A DNA stretch of 55,886 nt from positions 1-55,886 of the forward strand of contig PUON01000057.1 in assembly GCA_003552125.1 (NCBI GenBank), in the 5' to 3' direction. The notes under the pieces are model-generated. The model saw only the letters and a program-made list of their open reading frames with translations, did no database searches and was not told the DNA's origin. Positions 15,213 to 42,447 of the stretch are shown here, piece after piece. The DNA is from Dehalococcoidia bacterium. GTDB lineage: Bacteria > Chloroflexota > Dehalococcoidia > GIF9 > AB-539-J10. The translations under genes were made by a program, and so were the position numbers. Each line of letters begins with the position of its first letter. Within the stretch, counting starts at the first letter, position 1.

Positions 15213-16124
15213 TCATATACTGGCGGGCGCAGGTTGCGCAGTGTCGGCTATCGGCTCTTGTTGCTCCTCAAGGACGAGTTTCAGAGCCACGATTGCCGCT
15301 TCTATCTGACTATCATCCGGCTTACGTGTCACGAGTCTCTGCAGCGTCAGCCCCGGCACAGTGATCAGCCTTACGAGGGGGTTCTGCTGACGATCGGCCG
15401 ACCACTTGATAATCTCGTAGCTCACTGCGGCGATAAACGGCAGCAGCAGAAGCCTGGAAAGTATGCCGATCAGTATGGGGGGCCTGCCCAGCAGTGAAAG
15501 CACGATAATCGAAACTACGAGAACCACGAAGATGAAGCTCGTGCCACAGCGCGCATGCGATGTTGAGTGTTCCCTGACAGCTTCGGGTGTGAGTGGGATG
15601 CCCGCCTCGTGTGCATTGATAACGCTGTGTTCTGCGCCGTGATATGCAAATACTCGGCGCACATCCGGCATAAGCCCGATGAGCGCGATGTAGGCGACGA
15701 AGATCATCATTCGTACGATGCCCTCGAGTATATTGCTCACCAGGTCTGACGCGATGAATGCGTCCAGGCTTCTGGACGCAAGATGAGGAACCACGAAGAA
15801 CAGCCCCACGCTGAAGGTGAGGCTTGCGACAACGGCGAGAACGAGCGCACCTTTGGGAATCTCCTCACCTTCCTCACCGGATGCAGCCCTCTCAGCGGAG
15901 TACAGGAGCGCCTGGGTGCCGATGATCATGGTTTCAAGTAGAACGAGAAAGCCGCGAACCAGAGGTAATTGTCTTAATCTGCCTGTGTACATGGTGGGTA
16001 TGGGTTTGTGGCTTGTCTCCAGCGTGCCGTCCGGCAGTCGCAACGCCATTGCCAGTTTCTTCTGGCCGCGCATCATGACACCTTCGATCAGGGCCTGACC
16101 ACCGTAGTGGAATTTCTTCGCCAT
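15213..16124 (-). CDS. DUF1385 domain-containing membrane protein (putative metallopeptidase)
   Basis: YGGQALIEGVMMR, VFAYHGAEH, HARCGTSF, PGLTLQRLVTRKPDDSQIE. Start placed at ATG 16124. Confidence 0.9.
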   Translation of the reverse strand: MAKKFHYGGQALIEGVMMRGQKKLAMALRLPDGTLETSHKPIPTMYTGRLRQLPLVRGFLVLLETMIIGTQALLYSAERAASGEEGEEIPKGALVLAVVASLTFSVGLFFVVPHLASRSLDAFIASDLVSNILEGIVRMMIFVAYIALIGLMPDVRRVFAYHGAEHSVINAHEAGIPLTPEAVREHSTSHARCGTSFIFVVLVVSIIVLSLLGRPPILIGILSRLLLLPFIAAVSYEIIKWSADRQQNPLVRLITVPGLTLQRLVTRKPDDSQIEAAIVALKLVLEEQQEPIADTAQPAPASI

Positions 16125-28016: not shown

Positions 28017-29258
28017 CTAGTTCAGTCTGACACGTACGAACACCCGTCTCCCAACCTTTACCACAGAGCCATCCCGAACGGGTACGGTCAGTTCGCCTAC
28101 CTTGTTGCCATCGATCTCGACAGCGTTTTGCGCCACCAGTCGCTTGAATTCACTTGTGCTCTTGACGTGACCACCCTCCACCAGTGGACGGCAAAGGTCG
28201 ACTCTTACGTCGTCGCCGTCCGGAATGCCGGTGACGAATACTTCCGGCATCTCATCGGGGAGCTCATGCATCTGATGCACGCGTGTGAAATGCGCTTCGG
28301 CCTGATCAGCCTCTTCGGCGCCGTGAAACTGGCTCGTGATCTCCGACGCCAATCTCTTCTTGGCGTCCATTGGATTTGCGGTACCTGAGGCGAAGGATTC
28401 CTTCATTTCTCTCATTTCCTCGTCACTCACATCCGTGACGAGTTCGAAGTAATCCAGGATGAGCGAGTCGTCGAGCGACATAACTTTCCCGTACATCTGT
28501 CCCGGTGGCTCGGCTACGCCGATGTAGTTGCCGAGGCTCTTACTCATCTTACTCTTGCCGTCGGTACCCACGAGAATAGGAGTGAAAAACACCTGCTGGG
28601 CATTCTGTCCCATCATCTGCTGGAGTTCTCGCCCGAGGAGACAGTTGAACTTCTGATCCGTGCCTCCGAACTCGACATCCGAATTAATGGCGTAGGAGTC
28701 GTACGCCTGCAGCAGGGGATAGAGCATTTCGCACAGCGAGATCGGGTTCCCAGTCGTGTATCGTTTGTTGAAATCCTCCCTCGCGAGTATCTGTGCAACA
28801 GTGAAACGTGCAGTGAGTCGGATGACCGTATCAAGCGTGAAATCGGAGAACCATTCAGTCTGCCAGCGCACCTCTGTACGATCCTTGTCCACCACCCTGA
28901 AGAACTGTTCCATGTAGGTTTGCGCGTTCTCCTCGATCTGTGCCTCCGTGAGCATTGGTCTGGTGGCTGACTGGCCGCTGGGATCACCGATTCGAGCAGT
29001 CCAGTTGCCTACGATTAGGATGACCTTGTGGCCGAGTTCCTGGAGTTGACGCAGCTTGCGCAATCCCACTACATGGCCGAGGTGTATGTCCGGAGAACTG
29101 GGGTCGAAACCCTCCTTGAGCCGTGCGGGCGTGCCGCGGTTGAGAAGATCGGTGAATTCGTGCTCCGGGATGATTTCTGCAACTCCACGGCGCAGCAGGA
29201 AATCTCTTCGTGCCGGCGGCAGATCACGTAGCAGCGTTACCTTGGCAGTATCACTCAT
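28017..29258 (-). CDS. tyrS: Tyrosine--tRNA ligase
   Basis: GFDPSSPDIHLGH, YPLLQAYD, GGTDQKFN, KMSKS, C-terminal S4 domain. Confidence 0.96.
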   Translation of the reverse strand: MSDTAKVTLLRDLPPARRDFLLRRGVAEIIPEHEFTDLLNRGTPARLKEGFDPSSPDIHLGHVVGLRKLRQLQELGHKVILIVGNWTARIGDPSGQSATRPMLTEAQIEENAQTYMEQFFRVVDKDRTEVRWQTEWFSDFTLDTVIRLTARFTVAQILAREDFNKRYTTGNPISLCEMLYPLLQAYDSYAINSDVEFGGTDQKFNCLLGRELQQMMGQNAQQVFFTPILVGTDGKSKMSKSLGNYIGVAEPPGQMYGKVMSLDDSLILDYFELVTDVSDEEMREMKESFASGTANPMDAKKRLASEITSQFHGAEEADQAEAHFTRVHQMHELPDEMPEVFVTGIPDGDDVRVDLCRPLVEGGHVKSTSEFKRLVAQNAVEIDGNKVGELTVPVRDGSVVKVGRRVFVRVRLN

Positions 29259-30187
29259 TTGTTGCTATCCCCCAGGATTGTTCGAGTTTCCACCACGTCC
29301 CGGTTAATCTGGGACACGAGTTCGTCCCGGTCCCGGAACGCGATCTCCTGCCTTATGAAGGCGACAAACTCGATTGTAAGCGGCGCTCCGTAGACTTGCC
29401 CTTCGAAATCGAGAATGTGGGTCTCCACAACGCGTTCTGAGTGACCGAAGGTGGGTCGAAAACCGATGTTGGTGACGGATGCGAACTGGCCGTCTGGTAC
29501 GTGCGCGATAGTAGCATAAACGCCATCACGCGGCAACGCGCGTTTGGAACAGATGTCCAGGTTAGCGGTCGGGAAACCAATCGAGGCGCCACGCTTGCTG
29601 GTTGATCCGACCGTGCCGCTTAGCGTGTATCTCCGACCGAGCATCCGCGTAGCGGTACCGATATCTCCTGCGGACAGTGCTCCGCGTATAACGGTACTGC
29701 TCACCACCTGGCCATCGATCATGTAGGGAGGAACAACCTCGACGGTGTAGCCGACTTGCGTGCCTAGTGCCTCAAGAGCTTCAGCCGTACCTGCCCGGTT
29801 CTTGCCCAGCACGAAGTCAGGGCCCAGGAGCAACCCGCGCATGTGCAGGTGTGAGACGAGCATTCGGACGAATTCGAGCGGCGAGTATTCGCTGATCTCG
29901 CGTGTGAAGGTGAGAGGCACGGTCAACGGTACGCCGCTCTTACGTATGCAATGCACGCGTTCGTCGATACTCATCAGCAACGGAAGATGCATGTCCGGTC
30001 GCAACACTTCGAGGGGATGTGGATTGAAGGTCACGACCCCCGGGCACAACCCACGTGCCCGCGCACGTTCCACGAGTGTTTCGATTAAGGACTGGTGTCC
30101 CAGATGGACCCCGTCGAATACGCCGAGTGTGAGCAGCGTGTGTGTCTCAGGAGTATGCTGTGACAATTCCTCGGTAGCTGTGCTCAT
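29255..30187 (-). CDS. ribF: Bifunctional riboflavin kinase/FAD synthetase
   Basis: LGVFDGVHLGHQ, TFNPHP, SSTVIR, GFPTAN, VETHILDF. Confidence 0.95.
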   Translation of the reverse strand: MSTATEELSQHTPETHTLLTLGVFDGVHLGHQSLIETLVERARARGLCPGVVTFNPHPLEVLRPDMHLPLLMSIDERVHCIRKSGVPLTVPLTFTREISEYSPLEFVRMLVSHLHMRGLLLGPDFVLGKNRAGTAEALEALGTQVGYTVEVVPPYMIDGQVVSSTVIRGALSAGDIGTATRMLGRRYTLSGTVGSTSKRGASIGFPTANLDICSKRALPRDGVYATIAHVPDGQFASVTNIGFRPTFGHSERVVETHILDFEGQVYGAPLTIEFVAFIRQEIAFRDRDELVSQINRDVVETRTILGDSNK

Positions 30188-30269
30188 CGGTGGTCCACGA
30201 CGTCCGACGACCGTCTGGTCTGCAAGTACACCCGCGACTTATCCGGCGCAGTAATCCGTCTCGTCGAAT

Positions 30270-30298
30270 AGCCTATGCGATTGCCACATACCCGTCAA
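30270..30298 (-). promoter_or_regulatory. Putative sigma70 promoter of ribF-tyrS
   Basis: TTGACG (30298-30293), 17 nt, TAGGCT (30275-30270). Confidence 0.5.
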
Positions 30299-30352
30299 GA
30301 AACCGTCGTGTGCGACGTCTCGAACACATCCAGGGCGCTGTGTGGATTCAGC

Positions 30353-30382
30353 TTGACAATTACGAGATCCCCTCTTTACAAT
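30353..30382 (+). promoter_or_regulatory. sigma70 promoter of the aro leader/operon
   Basis: TTGACA 30353-30358, 18 nt, TACAAT 30377-30382. Confidence 0.8.
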
Positions 30383-30419
30383 CGTCTCAAAGTAAGGGAA
30401 GATCGGTCGTCTTGAGGCA

Positions 30420-30500
30420 ATGAACACCTTCCGGGTACGCTTCGTCTATTGGGTCTACTTTTATCGCACCGTCACGCCCGGGAGCGGTCTTGCCACGTAA
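30420..30500 (+). CDS. Putative attenuator leader peptide, MNTFRVRFVYWVYFYRTVTPGSGLAT
   Basis: 26 codons containing 3 Phe, 3 Tyr and 1 Trp; 6 of residues 8-15 are aromatic. Lies between the promoter and a terminator upstream of aroF. Confidence 0.85.
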   Translation: MNTFRVRFVYWVYFYRTVTPGSGLAT

Positions 30501-30532
30501 CGCACAGAGATAGCAGGTAGCAGGTAAGTGAG

Positions 30533-30565
30533 AAAGGACCCTCCCGCCGGGAGGGTCCTTTGTTT
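30533..30565 (+). terminator. Intrinsic terminator (attenuator) upstream of aroF
   Basis: Perfect 12-bp stem AAAGGACCCTCC (30533-30544) / GGAGGGTCCTTT (30550-30561), followed by GTTT. Confidence 0.88.
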
Positions 30566-30623
30566 GTGTATACCGCCGGACGGCTGAAGAAGCAGTCCGG
30601 ACGAACAGAATGGAGGGATCGCG

Positions 30624-31682
30624 ATGATCATCATGAAGACGGACGCCACAGAGGAGGATATCGAGCGGGTCGTTGAGGAGATTCGACGCAGCGGACTGCG
30701 TGCGGACGTATCGCGTGGCGATTATATGACAGTCATTGGCCCGGTCGGTGACGAACGAAGGCTTCCCTTTGATCGGTTGGCAACACTGCCGGGTGTCAAA
30801 GAAGCCAATCGCGTTGAGTCACCGTACAAGCTCATCAGTCGTGAGTATGCGCGGTTCTTTGGCGAGCCCGGAGCGCACAGGACCGTCGTGATTGGTGATG
30901 TGCGAGTCGGGAACGGAGAACCCGTTATCATCGCGGGACCGTGTGCGGTCGAAAGCCGCGCGCAGCTCATGCGTATCGCTGAGGAAGTCAAGAAGGCCGG
31001 AGCGCATGTGCTTCGCGGCGGCGTCTTCAAGCCGCGAAGCTCGGTGCACTCCTTTCAGGGTCTTGGCGCCACTGGCAGCGAAGAAGCAGAAGAGGCACTA
31101 CGCTGGTTGCGTGAGGCTGGAGACGCCTTCGATATGCCGGTTGTGACGGAGATCAGGGGAGAGTCCATGGTCGAACTTGTAGCAAAATATGTGGATATCA
31201 TGCATATTGGCGCACGAAATATGTATGATCAGGACCTGCTTGTCGCGGTAGCCTGCCAGCAGAAACCGGTACTGATCAAGAGACATTTTGGAGCCAGCAT
31301 CGAAGAACTGCTTTCGTTCAGTGAATACGTCGCTGCCGAAGGGAACAAAGACATCATTCTTTGCGAGCGGGGGATCGTGCCTATGGGCAAGGGTAAGAGC
31401 TTCACCAGGTATACCCTCGACCTTGCCGCCATACCAGTGATCCATGAGGAGACGTATCTTCCGGTCATACTTGATCCGAGCCATGGGACCGGGCGACGTG
31501 ATCTGATACTCCCGATGAGTTGCGCTGCGGTTGCTGCCGGGGCTGATGGCCTTATGATCGAGGCGCACTACGATCCATCGGAGGCCCTTGTCGACGGGCC
31601 GCAGATGGTAACTCCGGATGAATTGAAGGAGATCATTGAGACGTGCGGTCGACTGCGCAGGACGATGGCACCACAGAATTGA
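30624..31682 (+). CDS. aroF: DAHP synthase class I-beta with N-terminal regulatory domain
   Basis: IAGPCAVES, RGGVFKPRSS, IGARNM, ILCERGI, DPSHGTG; N-terminal MIIMK...TVIG ferredoxin-like/ACT-like domain. Confidence 0.94.
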   Translation: MIIMKTDATEEDIERVVEEIRRSGLRADVSRGDYMTVIGPVGDERRLPFDRLATLPGVKEANRVESPYKLISREYARFFGEPGAHRTVVIGDVRVGNGEPVIIAGPCAVESRAQLMRIAEEVKKAGAHVLRGGVFKPRSSVHSFQGLGATGSEEAEEALRWLREAGDAFDMPVVTEIRGESMVELVAKYVDIMHIGARNMYDQDLLVAVACQQKPVLIKRHFGASIEELLSFSEYVAAEGNKDIILCERGIVPMGKGKSFTRYTLDLAAIPVIHEETYLPVILDPSHGTGRRDLILPMSCAAVAAGADGLMIEAHYDPSEALVDGPQMVTPDELKEIIETCGRLRRTMAPQN

Positions 31683-31683
31683 G

Positions 31684-32775
31684 ATGAAGACGCTGGAAGT
31701 CAGGTGTTCCGACAACCCGTATCGTATGTTGATCGGTGCCGGCGCTTTGGAAATGGTTGCGGATGAACTTATCCGACTCGGCTTTTCCGGGACCGTCGTG
31801 GTTGTAACAGACGAGACAGTTGCAGGCTTGTTCGGCGCATGCCTTGAAGAGTACTTGCGGCGAGGGGGCCTGTTGCCGCAGTTGGAGGTGATTTCCCCGG
31901 GAGAAGCACAGAAGAATCTTGAGACCGCCAGCGCACTGTACAGTCGTCTCAATGATCTTGGCGCCGAGCGGTCGACCCCGATGCTGGCTCTGGGCGGCGG
32001 TGTAATCGGTGATCTTACCGGTTTCGTTGCGGCGACCTATTTTCGTGGTTTGCCGCTGGTTCATGTGCCTACCACCCTTGTTGCCCAGGTTGACAGCAGC
32101 ATCGGCGGCAAAGTCGCAGTGAATCACGGGAGACTCAAGAACAACATCGGCTCGTTCTACCAGCCTGCATCGGTGGTTGCCGACACCGCTTCGCTGTTGC
32201 ATCTTCCCGAGCGGGAGTATCGCAACGGGCTCGCGGAGGTAATCAAGAGCGCGATGATTCGTGATGCACAGTTCTTCGGGTACCTCGAGTCGAACATTGA
32301 GCGGGTCGTGGCGCGGGATAGTGAAACCTTGGAGTACGTGGTTGCAGTGACCGCCGGCATCAAGGCAACGGTCGTCGAAGAAGATGAAAAGGATATGGGT
32401 TTGCGCAATATCCTGAACTTTGGTCATACCGTCGGGCATGGAATAGAGACGGCTTCGGCCTTCTCTATTGCTCACGGTGAGGCCGTGGCGATCGGCATGG
32501 TTGCTGCAACCCGTATAGCCTCGTCGATGCAAATCATGTCGGCATCGTGTTGCGAGCGGCTGAAGACACTGCTTCAAAGAGCAGGCCTTCCGGTCGCAGT
32601 TCCGCTTCACGTGGACAGGGATGACGTGGTCGATGCGATGATGCACGATAAGAAGAGGGTGAAAGGGCGCCTGCGGTTCATCCTGCCTGTAAGCATAGGC
32701 GAGGTTCAGATTCGTGATGACGTGCCTGCTGAGCAGGTATACCAGACGCTGGAGGCATTGTATGCAGGGACCTGA
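31684..32775 (+). CDS. aroB: 3-dehydroquinate synthase
   Basis: GGGVIGDLTGF, PTTLVAQVDSSIGGK, LNFGHTVGHGIE, HGEAVAIG. Confidence 0.96.
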   Translation: MKTLEVRCSDNPYRMLIGAGALEMVADELIRLGFSGTVVVVTDETVAGLFGACLEEYLRRGGLLPQLEVISPGEAQKNLETASALYSRLNDLGAERSTPMLALGGGVIGDLTGFVAATYFRGLPLVHVPTTLVAQVDSSIGGKVAVNHGRLKNNIGSFYQPASVVADTASLLHLPEREYRNGLAEVIKSAMIRDAQFFGYLESNIERVVARDSETLEYVVAVTAGIKATVVEEDEKDMGLRNILNFGHTVGHGIETASAFSIAHGEAVAIGMVAATRIASSMQIMSASCCERLKTLLQRAGLPVAVPLHVDRDDVVDAMMHDKKRVKGRLRFILPVSIGEVQIRDDVPAEQVYQTLEALYAGT

Positions 32776-33424
32776 TATCTGTGCATGCATCACAGATGCA
32801 GCCGATCTGCCAGCTGCCATGGATGTAAGGGAACTGGTCTCCTACTACGAGGTGCGAATAGACCTTATCGGCGAGCGGTGGACCGAATTAGTCGCGTCAC
32901 TGTCACTTCCATGGATTGCCTGCAATCGGCTTGTGTCGCAGGGTGGCGCCTGTACACAGTCAGAGGATCTGAGAATGGCCTCATTGGGGCAGGCGGTGGA
33001 TCTCGGTGCGGCGATCGTTGATATCGAGCTCGACGCGCCGGGTTTGGATGAATTGGTAGAGAGTACGAAGGGAAGGGCGACTGTACTGGTTTCACACCAC
33101 GATATGAAGAAGACCGATGACATGGACACTCTCGCAGCAATCGTGGAGAAACAGAGGGCAGCCGGAGCTGATATCTGCAAGCTCGTAACCACAGCCTGCG
33201 GGTTCGGTGATAACATCACCCTTCTCCGCCTTACACGGAGATTCTCCAGCGTGCCTCTGGTCGCTTTCGCGATGGGAGAACACGGGACTGTGAGCCGTGT
33301 GCTCGCACCAGTGGCGGGTGCCCGGTTCACCTATGCATCACTTGCCGCCGGGCGTGAGGCAGCGCCGGGACAGCTGACGGTTCGAGAACTGATGGCAATA
33401 TATGAGGCTATGGGGGTCAGGTAA
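32762..33424 (+). CDS. aroD: Type I 3-dehydroquinate dehydratase
   Basis: EVRID, VDIEL, VSHHD, DICKL, FAMGEHG.VSR, APGQL. Confidence 0.92.
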   Translation: MQGPDICACITDAADLPAAMDVRELVSYYEVRIDLIGERWTELVASLSLPWIACNRLVSQGGACTQSEDLRMASLGQAVDLGAAIVDIELDAPGLDELVESTKGRATVLVSHHDMKKTDDMDTLAAIVEKQRAAGADICKLVTTACGFGDNITLLRLTRRFSSVPLVAFAMGEHGTVSRVLAPVAGARFTYASLAAGREAAPGQLTVRELMAIYEAMGVR

Positions 33425-34288
33425 ATGCACATCTCAGGCGCAACTGCCGTATACGGCATTGTGGGTGATCCTGTCGCGCATTCCCTGTCGCCCTCGATGC
33501 AGAACGCTGCGTTCGAGGCTGTCGGTCTCGACTGTGTGTATGTGCCGTTCCTGTTGACAAGAGGTGCTGCTGACGTGGCTGCGGTTGCAGTGAGGCGGAT
33601 GGGCCTGTGCGGGCTCAACGTTACAGTGCCGCACAAAGTGGACATAATACCATTTCTGGATTCCCTCGACCCGTCGGCACAGAGAGTTGGTGCCGTGAAC
33701 ACGGTGGTGAAAGAGGAAGGGAAGCTGAGGGGATACAACACCGACGCCCCCGGGTTCGCTCGCTCACTGGATTCCTTCGGTGTCGATGTCAAGTGCAAGG
33801 AGGTTCTGGTTCTTGGGGCTGGAGGAGCGGCCAGGGCAGTAGTTTCTTCTCTGCTTGAGCTGGGCGCCAGGGTCGTTGTGCTGAATAGGGACGTCGCGCG
33901 TGCGCAGAGGCTTGCCCGGGATGTTGCTGCCGAGATGGATTGTGGTATTGCCTGCGGCACAATCAGTGATTCCTGCCTTGAGGAGCACATGCCCGGTTGT
34001 GCCTTGCTGGTAAATACCACGAGCGTGGGCATGTATCCCAACTGCCAGGAGTCGCCTTGCCCGCCGCGTTTCTTTCACCGGGATCTCACCGTGTGCGATA
34101 TCGTATACAACCCCATTGACACGCTGTTGCTCAGCGAGGCGAGGAAGTGTGGGGCGCGCGTTATCACAGGGGACGAAATGCTGGTGCAGCAGGGTGCTCT
34201 GGCGTTTGAGTTATGGATGGGCATAACCGCACCCGTGGAAATCATGCGCTCGAAGGTGCGGGAGGAGCTTGGCCGTGGCGCGCAGTAA
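33425..34288 (+). CDS. aroE: Shikimate dehydrogenase
   Basis: HSLSP, NVTVPHK, GAVNT, NTD, GAGGAARA, DIVYNP. Confidence 0.95.
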   Translation: MHISGATAVYGIVGDPVAHSLSPSMQNAAFEAVGLDCVYVPFLLTRGAADVAAVAVRRMGLCGLNVTVPHKVDIIPFLDSLDPSAQRVGAVNTVVKEEGKLRGYNTDAPGFARSLDSFGVDVKCKEVLVLGAGGAARAVVSSLLELGARVVVLNRDVARAQRLARDVAAEMDCGIACGTISDSCLEEHMPGCALLVNTTSVGMYPNCQESPCPPRFFHRDLTVCDIVYNPIDTLLLSEARKCGARVITGDEMLVQQGALAFELWMGITAPVEIMRSKVREELGRGAQ

Positions 34289-34793
34289 CGTCGCGCTAAT
34301 CGGGTTCATGGGAGCTGGAAAGTCAGCCGTGGGCAGAATGCTCGCAATCCGGACGAACAGGTCGTTCGTCGAGACGGATTCGCTCGTGGAAGAATACGCA
34401 GAGACGTCGATCGCGGACATCTTCTCCCGTTTCGGAGAGGAGCGTTTTCGCGATCTTGAGGCTGAGGTAGTCTCCCGAGTGGCGCAGATGACCGATACGG
34501 TCATCTCGTGCGGTGGCGGTGTGGCATTGCGTGAACAGAACGTTGCTTGGCTGAAAACGTCATCGGTGGTGGTCTTTCTGGATGTGACGCCTGAGACCGT
34601 GCTGCAGAGGATTGGTCCGGGATCGAAGATTCGACCGCTGCTTGACGGGCCGGATCGTGACTCTCGGGTCAGGCACTTGATGGAAGAGCGACAACCCATC
34701 TACTGCGCCGCTGCGGACATCACCGTGCAGACCGACCGTATCCCGATCGACCATGTGGTAGAAAGAGTTGAGGAAGAGTTGGTGCGCGTATGA
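34275..34793 (+). CDS. aroK: Shikimate kinase
   Basis: GFMGAGKS, GEERFRDLE, SCGGG, RPLL. GTG 34275 lies 8 nt after GGAGGA. Confidence 0.95.
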   Translation: MARSNVALIGFMGAGKSAVGRMLAIRTNRSFVETDSLVEEYAETSIADIFSRFGEERFRDLEAEVVSRVAQMTDTVISCGGGVALREQNVAWLKTSSVVVFLDVTPETVLQRIGPGSKIRPLLDGPDRDSRVRHLMEERQPIYCAAADITVQTDRIPIDHVVERVEEELVRV

Positions 34794-36055
34794 AGGTCAT
34801 TGTTAAGCGTAGTGATGTTGCCGGGATGGTGGTTATTCCGGGCTCGAAGAGCTACACCATTCGTGCGGTGATGTGCGCGGCGATGGCCAAGGGCGAAAGC
34901 ATCATAGAGAATGCGCTCGAGTCAGAAGATACACACGCAGTCCTGGAGTGTGTTCGTGCGCTCGGGGCCGACGTGTCCCGGTCGTCACGCGGTTTGCTGG
35001 TGCATGGCACCGATCTGCATGAATCCGTTAACCCGCTGTGGTGTCGGGAATCCGGCGCGACACTTCGTTTCCTTGCTGCAGTTGCCGCCACGATCCCCGG
35101 AAGATCGGTGCTGCGCTGTGCTCCTTCGCTTGCCCGGCGTCCGATGGGGCCGTTGCTGGATGCGATTCGGCAGCTTGGTGTGAAGTGCAGCTTCGATGTA
35201 GCCGACGGCGAACTCGTTGTGGAGGGACGTCGGGCGCAATCGTCTCGGGTGATGCTCCGTGGGGACATCAGTTCGCAGTTCGTCTCGGCCATGCTCCTTT
35301 CGGGACCGCGATATGCCGGCGGACTTCATGTGCACGTCGCGTCGTCGCTGGTGTCTGAGCGCTATTTGCAGATGACCGTCCAGTGCATGCGCCGGTTTGG
35401 TGCTGGAGTGAGGGTTCTGGAAGGAGAACGCGCGTTCTTCGTGCCCGGTGGGGGATATACGCCGACCGACTATGTGGTGGAAGGCGATTGGTCTGCGGCG
35501 GCTGCAATTCTTGCTCTGGGAACCCTGTCCGGGAAAGTGGGGGCATCCGGTTTGGATACGGCAAGCGTGCAGGCTGACGCTGCCATGGTCAGTCTCCTTC
35601 AACTCATGGGAGCTTCGGTGACTACGCATTCGCACGGGGTGACTACAGAGAAGACCAGTCTTCATGCGTGTACGTTCGACCTTGAGGAGTCGATAGACCT
35701 GCTTCCGGTGGCCTGTGTGCTCGCAGCGGTGGCGGAAGGCGTCACCCGGTTCACACGAATCGGTCGCGCGCGTGACAAAGAGTCAGATCGCGTTGCAGCG
35801 ATGGCGGATGGGTTGCGACTGCTTGGAATTCGGGTCGAAGTCGATGCCGACGAGATGCGGGTGTGGGGTGGCACTGCACAGGGTGGCGTGGTATCTTCAG
35901 CAGGCGACCATCGCGTCGCAATGGCGTTTGGCGTCCTTGGGACAGTCGTTGGCGACATCACGATTGAAGATGCCGGCTGTGTCTCAAAGACGTACCCATC
36001 TTTCTGGGAGACCATGGAGCAGCTTGGAGTGGAGGTGCACTACTTTGAGCAATAG
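34790..36055 (+). CDS. aroA: EPSP synthase
   Basis: PGSKSYTIR, ESGATLRF, SSQFVSAML, KESDR, DHRVAMA, KTYPSF. Confidence 0.95.
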   Translation: MKVIVKRSDVAGMVVIPGSKSYTIRAVMCAAMAKGESIIENALESEDTHAVLECVRALGADVSRSSRGLLVHGTDLHESVNPLWCRESGATLRFLAAVAATIPGRSVLRCAPSLARRPMGPLLDAIRQLGVKCSFDVADGELVVEGRRAQSSRVMLRGDISSQFVSAMLLSGPRYAGGLHVHVASSLVSERYLQMTVQCMRRFGAGVRVLEGERAFFVPGGGYTPTDYVVEGDWSAAAAILALGTLSGKVGASGLDTASVQADAAMVSLLQLMGASVTTHSHGVTTEKTSLHACTFDLEESIDLLPVACVLAAVAEGVTRFTRIGRARDKESDRVAAMADGLRLLGIRVEVDADEMRVWGGTAQGGVVSSAGDHRVAMAFGVLGTVVGDITIEDAGCVSKTYPSFWETMEQLGVEVHYFEQ

Positions 36056-37136
36056 CATCGGCAGGTTGTTTCGCGTTACGAGTTTTGGGGAGAGCCATGG
36101 TCCCGTAGTAGGCGTGGTGGTTGATGGCTGCCCCGCGGGACTCAGTGTGGATCAGGGGACCATCCAAAGAGATCTCGATCGGCGGCGAGCTGTCGGACAG
36201 GCTGGCGCAACACCACGCAGGGAGGCCGATGCGGTACGCATACTCTCTGGTATGTACGAGGGGTGCACCACTGGCGCTCCCGTATGTATGGTCATCGACA
36301 ATGCGAATGTGGAATCCAGTAATTACCTGCCTTATCCGCGAACGCCACGCCCCGGGCACGCAGATTTCACGGCCAAAATCAGGTATGGCGGCTTCAACGA
36401 TCCAAGGGGAGGCGGCCGTTTTTCCGGGCGTATAACGGCTGGATTTGTGATGGCTGGAGCGCTCGCCCGTGCGGCGCTGGGACGCATTGGTGTTGAGGTT
36501 CATGCACACACAGTCGCCATCGGTGAAGTTGAAGCACCGGTATGTGAGCCCACAAGGGTGAGGGAGCTCAATCGACGCAATGCGCTGTCCTGTTGCGACG
36601 ACCGCAGTGCAGAATCGATGGTTCAGCACATCAGTGAGGCGGAGGCACGTGGCGATAGTGTGGGAGGAGTGGTGGAATGTGTCGTTCTTGGCCTGCCCCC
36701 TGGAGTGGGTGAGCCGGTCTTTTCCGGACTTGAGTCGGAGATTTCCCACGCCGTGTTCTCGATTCCTGCGGTCAAGGGAATCGAATTTGGTGGAGGCTTC
36801 GCGTTGTCCCGTCTGCATGGATCTGCGGCAAATGATCCGTATGAGTTCTGTGGTGACTCGGTCAGGAGCGTGAAGAACGACTCCGGCGGTATACTGGGTG
36901 GACTGTCTACCGGAATGCCCCTGGTGCTGCGTGCGGCTTTCAAACCGACTCCTTCGATTTCCCTTCCTCAACAGACGGTTGACCTTGAGGAGAGAACAAC
37001 CGCGGAACTGATAGTGAGAGGTCGGCATGATGCGTGCATTGTGCCGCGCGGGGTTGTGGTGGTGGAATCGATGGTGGCATGTGTGCTCTGCGACCTTTGC
37101 CTGAGGCGAGGGTTGATTCCAGGAGTGATGGTATGA
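36045..37136 (+). CDS. aroC: Chorismate synthase
   Basis: SFGESHG, RPGHAD, GGGRFSGR, FKPTPSI, GRHDAC. TTG start after GGAGG. Confidence 0.96.
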   Translation: MSNSIGRLFRVTSFGESHGPVVGVVVDGCPAGLSVDQGTIQRDLDRRRAVGQAGATPRREADAVRILSGMYEGCTTGAPVCMVIDNANVESSNYLPYPRTPRPGHADFTAKIRYGGFNDPRGGGRFSGRITAGFVMAGALARAALGRIGVEVHAHTVAIGEVEAPVCEPTRVRELNRRNALSCCDDRSAESMVQHISEAEARGDSVGGVVECVVLGLPPGVGEPVFSGLESEISHAVFSIPAVKGIEFGGGFALSRLHGSAANDPYEFCGDSVRSVKNDSGGILGGLSTGMPLVLRAAFKPTPSISLPQQTVDLEERTTAELIVRGRHDACIVPRGVVVVESMVACVLCDLCLRRGLIPGVMV

Positions 37137-38218
37137 GTATTGATGAGCTTCGTGAGAGATTTGATACGACTGATAGAGAACTCGTTCGCCTTCTGGCAGA
37201 GCGGTTCAAACTCTCGCGTGCGATTGGAGAAGTGAAAGAGCAGCTGGGACTACCGGTTCTGGATGCTGCGAGAGAGCAGTTGGTACTGGAGCGTGTTCGT
37301 GATCTCGCATCCGAATTCGGAGTAGATGCGCAGGATATCGAAGGTGTGTACAGGCGAGTGATCGATGTTTCCAGGTCGGTACAACATACGACCGTGGCGT
37401 TTCAGGGCGAACCGGGAGCGTTTAGTGAAGAGGCGGCGCTGGAATTCTTCGGTCGCGCAGTGACTACCTGCTCATGCGAGAGTTTCGATGACGTATTCAG
37501 TTCGGTTGCGGAGGAACGCACGCGGTTTGGAATCGTGCCGGTTGAGAACTCTTCCGAGGGTAGTATAAGCAGGGTCTATGATCTGTTCATGGATCACGAT
37601 GTGCGTGTCTGTGGCGAGACGGCCCTGCGTATCGTGCACTGTCTGATCGCGCATCGTAACGCTACGCTCGGTGGAATACGCCGCGTCTATTCCCATCCTC
37701 AGGCGCTGGGCCAGTGCCGCTCGTTCCTGTCGCATCTCGGATGTGAACTCATTCCTGCGTACGATACTGCAGGAAGCGTGAAAATGATCAGCGAGGAACC
37801 GGCGTGTGATGCGGGGGCTGTGGCAGGGGCGCGCGCTGCTGAACTGTATGGCATGAAGGTGATTGCCACTGGCATTGAGGACAGCAGGAATAACTACACC
37901 AGGTTCTTCATTCTCTCCAAACGGGACGTGCCTCCTTCAGGTGGGGATAAGACATCGATCGTGTTTTCGGTCAGGCATGAACCAGGCGCCCTGTATGCGG
38001 CTCTCCGGGTTCTTGCAGAGCGGGGTGTCAACCTGACCAAGATCGAGTCGCGCCCCACTCGGCAGCAGCCGTGGGAGTACAATTTCTACCTTGATTTCGA
38101 GGGTCATCGCCTGGAGCCCGATTTCGACGCTGCGCTCAAAAGTATTGAGCCGTACTGTATCTTCGTCAGAGTGCTTGGCTCGTACCCTAAAGCGAAGCCG
38201 GTATGGAAGACACTATGA
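37133..38218 (+). CDS. pheA: Chorismate mutase / prephenate dehydratase (P-protein)
   Basis: N-terminal AroQ domain, then FQGEPGAFSE, PVENSSEG, SHPQALGQC, NYTRF, KIESRP. Confidence 0.95.
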   Translation: MSIDELRERFDTTDRELVRLLAERFKLSRAIGEVKEQLGLPVLDAAREQLVLERVRDLASEFGVDAQDIEGVYRRVIDVSRSVQHTTVAFQGEPGAFSEEAALEFFGRAVTTCSCESFDDVFSSVAEERTRFGIVPVENSSEGSISRVYDLFMDHDVRVCGETALRIVHCLIAHRNATLGGIRRVYSHPQALGQCRSFLSHLGCELIPAYDTAGSVKMISEEPACDAGAVAGARAAELYGMKVIATGIEDSRNNYTRFFILSKRDVPPSGGDKTSIVFSVRHEPGALYAALRVLAERGVNLTKIESRPTRQQPWEYNFYLDFEGHRLEPDFDAALKSIEPYCIFVRVLGSYPKAKPVWKTL

Positions 38219-39150
38219 AGATTGCCATTGTTGGAGCCGCAGGAAAGCTGGGAAGCTGGTTCGCTACCTTGCTGCATCAGCATGGTCATGAACTCGTACT
38301 GGTGGGACGTCGACGGGAGCCTCTCGAATTGCTGGCTACACGTATGGATCGTTGCGTGGTGGGACAGCTCGAGGATTTGGCATCCACGGACCTCGTTATT
38401 GTATCGGTTCCCATGGATGTGGTGGAACGTGTCATCGCGGAACTTGGGCTTCATGTCCGTGAATCCCAACCCGTCATAGACCTCAGCTCGCTCAAGCGTG
38501 CGCCTCAGGGTGCGGCAGATGCTCACATGGCACATGCGTGCTTCCTCGGAGTTCATCCCATGTTCGGCTCAGGCGCAGAGAGTCTCTCGGGTCACAACGT
38601 GATCCTTGTCCCGGACAATCCAAGTGCCGAAGCGCTCGCTACCAAGGTGCGCGAGTACGTTGAACCCCTTGGCGCACATGTAGTCTCGATGGACGTTGAG
38701 ACACATGATGATCTGATGTCAGTGGTTCTCGGGTTGCCTGCACTGGTTGTAGCTGCGGTCGCACGTTCAGTGCTGGCTGGTGGCCGGTTCGGAATGGCAC
38801 GAGAGGTAAGCGGCACGTCGCTTGAAGTACTGGCTTCGCTGACAGAAAGCATGCTGTGCGAGGGGAGCGAGCTGTACGGCACGCTCCTGGCAGCATTGCC
38901 GTCCGCCTCTGAGGTCGCCGGCGCCCTGCAGGATAGTGCCGCCCATTTCGCCCGACTGGTTGAGACACGCGATCGAACTGCGCTGATCGAAGAGTTTTCT
39001 TCGCTCGGACGACAACTGGAGCAGGTCGATCACCGTGCGGGCGATGCCTATGCGCGCATGTACGCTATGCTGGAAGCCCTGAAGCGTTATCCGCCTACTC
39101 CAGCGTCCTCTTCAATGGAGGCAGGCCTGCTACCTCCCGCAGACTGTTGA
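38215..39150 (+). CDS. tyrA: Prephenate/arogenate dehydrogenase
   Basis: MKIAIVGAAGKLG, DLSSLK, GVHPMFG, HDDLMSVVLGLP; last gene of the aro operon. Confidence 0.9.
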   Translation: MKIAIVGAAGKLGSWFATLLHQHGHELVLVGRRREPLELLATRMDRCVVGQLEDLASTDLVIVSVPMDVVERVIAELGLHVRESQPVIDLSSLKRAPQGAADAHMAHACFLGVHPMFGSGAESLSGHNVILVPDNPSAEALATKVREYVEPLGAHVVSMDVETHDDLMSVVLGLPALVVAAVARSVLAGGRFGMAREVSGTSLEVLASLTESMLCEGSELYGTLLAALPSASEVAGALQDSAAHFARLVETRDRTALIEEFSSLGRQLEQVDHRAGDAYARMYAMLEALKRYPPTPASSSMEAGLLPPADC

Positions 39151-41148: not shown

Positions 41149-42447
41149 ATGCGAGAAGTCGTTATAGTCAGTGGCTGTCGGACTGCCATAGGTGCATTTG
41201 GTGGGAGCCTCAAGGACGTACCCGCCATCGATCTTGGATCTCTGGTGATGCGCGAAGCGCTACGACGCGCGGGTCTTCGCCCGCGCACGGGGGATTGGTT
41301 CCGGGATGTCAGCCCGGATCGTGTGAAGGACGATGGTGTCATAGATCTGGAACAGCGGTTCTACAAATATGATGAGGGCCTGCGAGAGGTGCAGGTTGAT
41401 GAGGTTGTGATGGGCAACGTGCTCCAGGCCGGCCTTGGACAGAACTCAGCACGTCAGGCATCCATCAGGGCCGGCATACCGAAGGAGACGCCTGCATATA
41501 CCGTCAACAAAGTCTGTGGATCGGGGCTCAAAGCGATCACGGTAGGTGCTCAACCCATTATGCTCGGTGAGGCAGATGTGGTGGTTGCAGGAGGAATGGA
41601 GAGCATGAGCTGTGCTCCATATGGACTTCCGAAGGCGCGCTGGGGGTACCGCATGGATGTCGAGGGAGTCGGAGAGCTTCGGGACCTGATGGTCTTCGAT
41701 GGCCTTTGGGAGATATTCTATGGCTTCCACATGGGTAACACTGCGGAGGAGGTGGCGGCACGTTACGGGATCAGTCGCGAGGATCAGGATGAAGTAGGAG
41801 CGATGAGTCATCAGCGAGCTCGCGCGGCGATTACCGAAGGCCTGTTCAAAGGTGAGATCGTGCCAGTTGAACTGCCCCAGCGCAAGGGTGATCCAATCGT
41901 GTTCGATACTGATGAACGCCCCATGGATACCACCAAGGAAAGGATGGCCAATCTGAAACCGGCGTTTCGTCCGAACGGAACCGTCACTGCGGGCAACTCT
42001 TCCGGCATCAATGATGCAGCTGCGGCTGTGGTCATGATGACCCGTGAGAAGGCAGACGAGCTTGGTCTGAAGCCCATCGTGAGCCTTAAGTCGTTTGGCT
42101 CAGGCGGTGTGGACCCCAAGTACATGGGTATCGGCCCAATCCCCGCAATCCGCAAGGCGCTGGCGCGTGCGGGCCTGAATGTATCCGACCTGGATGTTGT
42201 TGAGTTGAATGAGGCGTTCGCTGCTCAGGCTATCGCCTGCGTGCGCGAGCTTGGCTTCGACTGGGACAAGACGAATCCTCACGGAAGTGGTATCTCTCTG
42301 GGTCACCCGATCGGCTGCACGGGGGCTCGCCAGGTAGTCACGTTGATGCACGACATGATGCATCGTGGATTACGCTACGGACTTGTGAGCATGTGCATCG
42401 GTGGGGGTCAGGGCATGGCGGCGATATTCGAGAGGGCAGCTGACTAG
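41149..42447 (+). CDS. Acetyl-CoA C-acyltransferase (thiolase)
   Basis: RTAIG, VNKVCGSG, NSSGINDAAA, ELNEAFAAQ, SLGHPIG, SMCIGGGQG. Confidence 0.95.
   Translation: MREVVIVSGCRTAIGAFGGSLKDVPAIDLGSLVMREALRRAGLRPRTGDWFRDVSPDRVKDDGVIDLEQRFYKYDEGLREVQVDEVVMGNVLQAGLGQNSARQASIRAGIPKETPAYTVNKVCGSGLKAITVGAQPIMLGEADVVVAGGMESMSCAPYGLPKARWGYRMDVEGVGELRDLMVFDGLWEIFYGFHMGNTAEEVAARYGISREDQDEVGAMSHQRARAAITEGLFKGEIVPVELPQRKGDPIVFDTDERPMDTTKERMANLKPAFRPNGTVTAGNSSGINDAAAAVVMMTREKADELGLKPIVSLKSFGSGGVDPKYMGIGPIPAIRKALARAGLNVSDLDVVELNEAFAAQAIACVRELGFDWDKTNPHGSGISLGHPIGCTGARQVVTLMHDMMHRGLRYGLVSMCIGGGQGMAAIFERAAD

Follow-up and report, generated by a model that had tools for sequence, protein, structure and literature searches.

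A candidate transcription attenuator precedes the aromatic amino acid operon of a Dehalococcoidia bacterium

The 55,886-nucleotide contig PUON01000057.1 of a Dehalococcoidia bacterium (assembly GCA_003552125.1), analysed here over its whole length and referred to as the window, carries a nine-gene operon, aroF-aroBDEKAC-pheA-tyrA. By NCBIfam assignment it encodes all seven chorismate steps as well as pheA and tyrA, in agreement with an earlier note made from the sequence alone. Between aroF and the divergent ribF gene lie a promoter, a short open reading frame (ORF) rich in Phe, Tyr and Trp codons and a hairpin followed by a U-rich tail (Table 1). As ribF is transcribed away from it, this terminator does not end another gene. 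We conclude that the region is very probably a ribosome-mediated (leader-peptide) transcription attenuator of the operon. This conclusion is supported by the elements themselves and the way in which their pairings exclude one another, by conservation and covariation, and by the occurrence of terminated and read-through RNA in relatives.

The promoter, TTGACA-18-TACAAT, is present as previously described and matched the consensus at 11/12 positions in a promoter scan, being the one promoter-like site found in 1.4 kb against 0.4 expected. Judged from its position, transcription would start at about A30389/A30390, leaving a predicted 5′ untranslated region (UTR) of about 30 nt. The 26-codon leader ORF, also as read before, encodes aromatic residues at F4, F8, Y10, W11, Y13, F14 and Y15, so that six aromatic codons fall within codons 8-15. 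Such a density is rare: in a six-frame translation of the whole window, at least six aromatic residues per ten codons occurred in 5 of 86,270 ten-codon stretches and in 3 of the 2,111 stop-to-stop frames of at least 10 amino acids. Apart from the leader, the only frames reaching it were 41849-41983 and 15929-15973, both on the minus strand and both taken to be chance occurrences, the former inside the span of a long plus-strand ORF (41149-42447). No other leader ORFs with amino-acid runs were found in the intergenic regions of the window.

Table 1 Features of the leader region, the operon and the upstream gene. SD, Shine-Dalgarno sequence; MFE, minimum free energy; DAHP, 3-deoxy-D-arabinoheptulosonate 7-phosphate; EPSP, 5-enolpyruvylshikimate 3-phosphate.
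Feature	Position	Strand	Description
ribF	29255-30187	-	NF004160, 1e-88; divergent, upstream
-35 box	30353-30358	+	TTGACA (promoter scan); perfect TTGACA at the same relative place in about 75/78 related loci
-10 box	30377-30382	+	TACAAT, 18-nt spacer from -35 box; TACAAT or TACACT kept in the near clade
Leader ORF	30420-30500	+	26 codons and TAA, MNTFRVRFVYWVYFYRTVTPGSGLAT; ATG 30420, TAA 30498-30500
Segment 1	30428-30435	+	CUUCCGGG, codons 3-6; 5′ arm of 1:2 anti-antiterminator; MFE fold of whole and nascent leader
Candidate regulatory aromatic tract	30441-30464	+	codons 8-15, F V Y W V Y F Y (TTC, TAT, TGG, TAC, TTT, TAT)
Segment 2	30477-30491	+	CCCGGGAGCGGUCUU; partner of segment 1 or segment 3
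Segment 3	30533-30546	+	terminator 5′ arm AAAGGACCCUCCC and first loop base
Segment 4	30549-30561	+	terminator 3′ arm GGGAGGGUCCUUU
U-rich tail	30562-30569	+	GUUUGUGU
aroF SD	30612-30617	+	GGAGGG, 55 nt from the terminator region
aroF	30624-31682	+	DAHP synthase; NF006421, 3.8e-127, residues 1-348; TIGR01361, residues 87-341
aroB-aroD-aroE-aroK-aroA-aroC-pheA-tyrA	31636-39150	+	co-oriented, short gaps or overlaps; several start codons provisional
aroB		+	3-dehydroquinate synthase; TIGR01357, 1e-107
aroD		+	type I dehydroquinase; TIGR01093, 3e-37
aroE		+	shikimate dehydrogenase; NF001319, 1e-82
aroK		+	shikimate kinase; NF010553, 7e-47
aroA		+	EPSP synthase; TIGR01356, 7e-111
aroC		+	chorismate synthase; NF003793, 2e-125
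pheA		+	chorismate mutase/prephenate dehydratase; NF008865, 2e-74, and chorismate mutase domains
tyrA		+	prephenate dehydrogenase; NF006409, 1e-65; followed by an ORF on the opposite strand

The leader can form three alternative helices

The hairpin in front of aroF is an intrinsic terminator with a perfect G+C-rich stem, AAAGGACCCUCCC-GCC-GGGAGGGUCCUUU (30533-30561, loop of 3, -23.6 to -25.6 kcal/mol). Its position and U-rich tail had been recognized before, and the stem is 13 bp long instead of the 12 bp reported then. The 5′ arm of the terminator can alternatively pair with the end of the leader ORF, where GGGAGCGGUCUU (30480-30491) and 30535-30545 form an antiterminator (2:3) with one bulged C and one G-U pair. 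This helix is likewise real as proposed and one pair longer: RNAduplex extends it by C30479:G30546 to 12 bp (C30479-U30491 with A30535-G30546), with an energy of -20.8 kcal/mol as a duplex and -22.8 kcal/mol in context. Missing from the earlier note was segment 1, which completes the classical 1:2 / 2:3 / 3:4 attenuator. Here, CUUCCGGG (30428-30435) pairs with CCCGGGAG (30477-30484) and encloses the aromatic codons in the loop. As isolated helices, 1:2, 2:3 and 3:4 have energies of -16.8, -22.8 and -23.6 kcal/mol, respectively. A second copy of segment 2 or of the terminator was not found within the window.

Without constraints the leader folds into the 1:2 hairpin and the terminator together, and the nascent leader without a ribosome folds 1:2. 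When a ribosome was placed at W11 or Y15 as if stalled there and its footprint, of assumed size, was masked, the MFE structure of the transcript up to the terminator loop contained 2:3. A distance of 12 nt separates the last aromatic codon from segment 2, which in turn ends 7 nt before the stop codon; with these spacings segment 2 would be left accessible by a ribosome that stalls and covered by one that terminates. The locus thus holds an ORF enriched in end-product codons, a terminator, an exclusive 2:3 pairing and, in the window and its near clade, a 1:2 hairpin, arranged in the geometry of a classical attenuator.

An Rfam scan of 29800-31000 at a permissive threshold (E <= 10) returned no T-box or other known riboswitch, and no curated leader above threshold. 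The Phe_leader model (RF01859) scored 18.3 bits against a gathering cut-off of 55 and covered the terminator only, and no other leader family appeared at E <= 10. Between the terminator and the aroF SD lies an extra hairpin, CCGGAC-N14-GUCCGG (30576-30601); taken with the terminator, it accounts for a Hammerhead_II match below threshold (20.6 bits, cut-off 37), which we take to be chance. A 220-nt contig from a soda-lake metagenome matches the 30 terminator bases 30531-30560 exactly between unrelated flanks and may represent a further scaffold copy, either elsewhere or from a different organism.

Leader ORF and helices are conserved across Dehalococcoidia

A scan with AroF yielded 80 loci, all from metagenome-assembled genomes (MAGs) of Dehalococcoidia with 66-92% protein identity, 78 of which had enough upstream DNA. 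The DNA of the window itself is present in soda- and salt-lake metagenomes. The conservation check proposed in the earlier note came out positive: a Phe/Tyr/Trp-rich short ORF precedes aroF in the relatives (76/78 loci, 5-10 aromatics per ten codons), ending about 90-170 nt before the gene. The terminator hairpin and U-tail with a CCCUCC/GGAGGG core occur in all 78 loci, and a promoter scoring at least 9/12 in 76/78, nearly always with a perfect TTGACA and with 16-19 nt (mostly 17-18) to the TAnnnT box. Segment 2, which is rich in G and lies where the ORF ends, is likewise kept in 76/78 loci, its 3′ end falling between -28 and +9 nt relative to the ORF end across the family, and the leader element is always found directly upstream of aroF.

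Within the tract, codon choice varies (TAT 203 / TAC 113, TTT 157 / TTC 63) and aromatic identity is kept. The near-clade alignment has only two indels inside the ORF, both of 3 nt, so that the frame is preserved. The end of the ORF follows another pattern: among 22 relatives the nucleotides of ACGCCCGGGAGCGGUC hardly change, even at third codon positions, and the apparent C-terminal peptide motifs PGSG, CAWEA, AGEG and PGG all encode the same G-run. Different peptides over one G-run with invariant third positions point to a constraint on the RNA and not on the peptide.

In a MAFFT alignment of all 78 leaders the 3′ arms were misaligned because loop lengths differ, and base pairs were counted on a near and a distant subset instead. 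Among the 22 near-clade sequences, 84.7% of the cells of helix 1:2 were paired, compared to 58-65% with the partner slid by one column (2 compensatory pairs). The corresponding values were 91.3% against 62-69% for 2:3 (3 compensatory pairs) and 96.7% against 70-73% for 3:4 (3 compensatory pairs in 5 cells, reached in 0/500 shuffles). In the distant subset (23 sequences), 2:3 was paired in 91.7% of cells and in 68-73% when slid, with a covariation score reached by 2/500 shuffles. Matched changes in 2:3 include CGCUUGGGAGG:CCUCCCAAGCG, CGCCUGGGGG:CCUCCAGGCG, GCUGGGGAGGGUUU:AGAGCCCUCCCCAG and UGCCUGGGGGGUUUU:AAAAUCCCCCAGGC as well as CUGAGAG:CUCUCGG at locus L012. The trpL/pheL-type geometry that had been proposed for the window therefore holds there and in about 76 related loci, with pairing and compensatory changes in three helices.

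Each segment 2 also prefers the terminator of its own locus. Paired with its own terminator 5′ arm and loop it reached a mean of -20.7 kcal/mol, compared to -16.8 kcal/mol for non-cognate partners (double-centred, -3.6 vs +0.3 kcal/mol; Mann-Whitney, nominal p = 4.4e-27). With the 5′ arm only, z-scores of the antiterminator tests were modest, and cognate specificity was weak and still significant (-0.7 kcal/mol, nominal p = 2.6e-4). The strong signal came with inclusion of the terminator loop, since the 2:3 helix extends into it; in the alignment of all 78 leaders, segment 2 accordingly matches the loop as well, as in the first of the variants listed above. In a simple footprint model, the mean probability that the terminator arm is sequestered in a pre-formed helix was 0.83 with the ribosome stalled and 0.34 with it at the stop codon, with the expected direction in 77/78 loci, a result whose control is weak in that masking also simply removes sequence.

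The distant relatives appear to use another anti-antiterminator. A C-rich box, CCUCCC, upstream of their tract can pair with segment 2, no better than in shuffles, and RNAalifold predicts a local hairpin, GGCGCAC/GUGCGCU, the 3′ arm of which is the 5′ part of segment 2. From this modelled structure, the local hairpin may do the anti-antiterminator job in these loci.

The start of translation is unusual throughout the family. In the window, the SD of the leader is a poor one, GAGG placed 2 nt before the ATG, a caveat that the earlier note had raised with good reason. Only 14/78 leaders have an SD-like tetramer at 4-11 nt from the start, and the weak SD is thus not peculiar to the copy in the window; it is common across the leader family. 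In 11/78 loci (L029, L035, L040, L044, L055, L065, L069, L071, L073, L074 and L076) only 7-10 nt lie between the -10 box and the leader AUG, and with so short a distance the leader mRNAs of these relatives are probably leaderless.

Terminated and read-through leader RNAs occur in relatives

Transcripts of the leader were found for two relatives. At locus L053, from a deep-subsurface MAG, a metatranscriptome contig with a depth of 70 spans exactly the leader (2805-2967), starting 3 nt ahead of its AUG and stopping at the final (3′) base of the terminator stem. In this small metatranscriptome no contig covered aroF or the next 3 kb, and another contig of the locus had a depth of 24. The leader contig was assembled as a circular permutation in which 2967 is joined to 2805. 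The simplest reading is that it represents an abundant discrete terminated leader of about 163 nt, the ends of which were joined during library preparation. For locus L040, a peat metatranscriptome holds a contig, from a close strain, that starts at the stop codon of the leader, passes the terminator and extends 119 nt into aroF, and other runs cover aroF. As contigs of two relatives, both the terminated and the read-through form exist in nature.

The L053 RNA begins about 24 nt further downstream than its TTGACA-17-TATTTT promoter would predict; this shift may be due to processing, another start site or a ligation artefact of the library. On the opposite strand, just upstream of the same promoter, L053 carries a molybdenum-cofactor riboswitch (RF01055, 67.8 bits, 2539-2658).

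A model for aromatic amino acid-dependent read-through

Taken together, these findings suggest the following course of events, in which we infer the translation of the leader, ribosome stalling as the signal, the amino acids that count and the kinetic order of folding. Transcription would start about 30 nt before the leader AUG, and the nascent RNA would fold 1:2 first, with the aromatic codons in the loop. If the tRNAs for Phe, Tyr and probably Trp are well charged, the ribosome would reach the UAA at 30498 and cover segment 2; the 3:4 terminator would then form and transcription would end at about 30562-30569. If an aromatic tRNA is poorly charged, the ribosome would stall on codons 8-15, open 1:2 and leave segment 2 exposed. 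The latter would pair with segment 3 over 12 bp as soon as that is made, no terminator would form and RNA polymerase would proceed into the nine genes. In the absence of translation, 1:2 would persist and termination would be the default.

Several observations weigh against this model. The U-tract of the terminator is interrupted (GUUUGUGU), and in the complete leader the terminator wins at equilibrium even with the stalled ribosome masked. The comparison of folds with and without a ribosome footprint, suggested in the earlier note, thus came out as foreseen for the transcript up to the terminator loop and not for the complete leader. As the terminator is favoured at equilibrium, the decision for read-through must be kinetic; kinetic control is common to other attenuators. 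An SD 2 nt from the AUG, and none in most relatives, leaves translation of the leader unexplained. Helix positions in the near clade are largely invariant, so that covariation there is thin, amounting to 2-3 pairs for each helix. In the distant subset, shuffled sequences did as well as the long-range 1:2 pairing, and the p-values overstate the independence of phylogenetically related sequences. The RNA evidence consists of assembled contigs instead of reads, and the size fractionation stated for the L053 library could alone exclude long mRNA. RNA of the window's own organism was looked for and none was found, one candidate run giving low-depth fragments only.

Alternative explanations and the amino acids sensed

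Weak or absent canonical SD motifs before most leaders, together with the strong nucleotide-level conservation of segment 2 and the terminator core, would also fit a switch controlled by a ligand or a protein, i.e. a riboswitch, a T-box or a target of an RNA-binding protein, with the short ORF being untranslated or irrelevant. We consider this improbable, as the start, stop and frame of the ORF are kept in 76/78 loci, aromatic identity survives synonymous codon changes while the remaining peptide drifts, and the stop codon always adjoins segment 2. Moreover, beyond simple helices there is no conserved structure resembling a ligand pocket, and no Rfam family matches, the best sub-threshold hits being the Hammerhead_II and Phe_leader matches given above. 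It is harder still to believe that the ORF encodes a functional hydrophobic micropeptide or is a fortuitous match, with the hairpin acting as a constitutive terminator or a transcript-stabilizing structure. The peptide is indeed hydrophobic, and leader RNA is abundant and stable in one relative; however, the peptide is unconserved outside the aromatic tract, its C-terminal 'motif' (PGSG, CAWEA or AGEG for one G-run) follows the RNA pairing, and the element keeps its place in front of aroF. Nor would it make sense for an operon of essential biosynthesis to begin with a constitutive terminator, and RNA reading through it has been found.

A more serious alternative accepts the attenuator and restricts what it senses to the charging of tRNAs for Tyr and/or Phe, the Trp codon being incidental or structural. 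Tyr and Phe codons dominate the tracts family-wide (F 193, Y 306, W 63), and a Trp codon lies in the tract at 59/78 loci, with 19/78 leaders having none; all three aromatics occur together in 56/78. At many of the distant loci, UGG is contained in the UGGCGC arm of a local hairpin, and its conservation there may be due to RNA structure. In addition, the operon contains pheA and tyrA and no trp gene, and for the Phe-Tyr-Phe leader aroR of Corynebacterium glutamicum only Phe limitation had an effect, as far as the published description goes (PMC11802643). On the other hand, in the clade of the window the Trp codon stands mid-tract (Y-W-V-Y-F-Y) and outside any stem in 20/22 leaders, namely 10/12 operon leaders and 10/10 leaders of a second aroF paralogue (see below), and the chorismate made by the operon is the precursor of Trp as well. 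We therefore regard the restriction to Tyr and/or Phe as credible without preferring it. Judged by codon content, sensing of Tyr and Phe is likely, and sensing of Trp is plausible, with the arguments for and against about evenly balanced; that a single leader senses all three amino acids is a plausible extension of the attenuator model.

A second aroF paralogue carries a leader with different codon content

Two aroF loci are present in each of nine MAGs from the soda-lake clade: type A heads the operon as in the window, and type B (loci L013-L016 and L018-L023, e.g. L016:2788-2943 and L022:2783-2947) stands alone in varying neighbourhoods. The window has a single copy of the scaffold. Both types share the promoter, segment 2 and the terminator, and they differ in their leaders. 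Type A tracts contain F 36, Y 47 and W 10 and type B tracts F 36, Y 9 and W 12 (Fisher p = 7.5e-5, kinship ignored); examples of the latter are FVFAWCFTF, FSWFFVF and FWWFFTFTW. This difference in codon content suggests a tuning specific to each isoenzyme. Tentatively, a duplicated scaffold of TTGACA promoter, segment 2 and CCCUCC/GGAGGG terminator might act at the RNA level to give each DAHP synthase isoenzyme its amino acid specificity. The operon would then have a Tyr-rich Phe/Tyr/Trp leader and the stand-alone gene a Phe/Trp-biased one, each integrating two or three tRNA charging signals, largely without SD-dependent initiation. The paralogue leaders of Dehalococcoidia would thereby achieve with attenuators something analogous to the control of AroF/AroG/AroH by TyrR and TrpR in E. 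coli.

Near the stand-alone aroF of two MAGs lie serpin genes (PF00079, E ~1e-118 to 1e-123; L016:1349-2692 and L022:5163-6443). The AroF of the window has an N-terminal extension of about 85 amino acids (residues 1-86, 30624-30880) ahead of the catalytic domain, which starts at residue 87 of the TIGR01361 match. It is probably an allosteric regulatory domain, presumably similar to the one in Thermotoga-type DAHP synthases. AroF may therefore be subject to feedback inhibition and attenuation jointly.

Implications and comparison with known attenuators

Dehalococcoidia are slow-growing and mostly uncultured, and they include organohalide respirers used in bioremediation; regulation in this class is poorly known. 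If the model is correct, one RNA switch governs the common aromatic steps and the Phe and Tyr branches across the class, the coupling of transcription and translation is exploited in this lineage, and leader ORFs that are leaderless or lack an SD act as sensors. The element would represent a compact, portable sensor for aromatic amino acids. For hundreds of MAGs, an unannotated ORF with a premature terminator before aroF would become an annotation rule, and the paralogue-specific leaders would be a natural experiment on how codon content sets specificity.

We found the leader family in neither Rfam nor the literature searched, while the mechanism itself is textbook and aroF leaders are already known elsewhere. 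The earlier note knew of no such leader in this lineage, and our search of full-text literature, with one older attenuation survey outside its coverage, returned no leader peptide reported for Dehalococcoidia or Chloroflexota. With pheL-pheA and trpL of E. coli (RF01859 and RF00513) the element shares the 1:2 / 2:3 / 3:4 logic, the codons for the end products and a first structural gene that is preceded by an intrinsic terminator. Unlike in these systems, the regulatory codons of the window lie in the 1:2 loop, segment 2 is located inside the ORF just before the stop codon, a mixed Phe/Tyr/Trp tract takes the place of codons for a single amino acid, and most Dehalococcoidia leaders have no SD, some being leaderless. 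Homology to pheL in sequence or structure is lacking, the Phe_leader score being the one given above.

Closer in function is aroR of C. glutamicum, a Phe-Tyr-Phe leader peptide before the aroF operon (Neshat et al. 2014, as summarized in PMC11802643), with which we compare the element by its published description only, as far as that extends. Both are short mixed-aromatic leader ORFs before a DAHP synthase gene, and in aroR stalling raises transcription of the operon. By contrast, aroR belongs to Actinobacteria, has three aromatic codons compared to 6-7 in the window and unbroken runs of up to 10 in relatives, and controls a smaller operon with only an effect of Phe seen, whereas the leader of the window precedes the seven common steps, pheA and tyrA. 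A candidate upstream ORF of Acholeplasma, uORFC-13-1, also carries Phe codons immediately before an intrinsic terminator, is found exclusively upstream of aroF and likewise has a mechanism that is only predicted (Brewer et al. 2021, PMC8632094). It differs in being a U/Phe-rich RNA of Mollicutes and environmental sequences and not a Tyr/Phe/Trp-rich one (PMC8632094). For sensing without an SD, a preprint on mycobacteria describes leaderless polycysteine short ORFs as Cys-responsive attenuators (bioRxiv 10.1101/834739). They are a precedent for amino-acid-sensing leader ORFs with a leaderless 5′ AUG, for another amino acid and in another phylum; the window has a predicted UTR of about 30 nt, and 11 of its relatives look leaderless as well.

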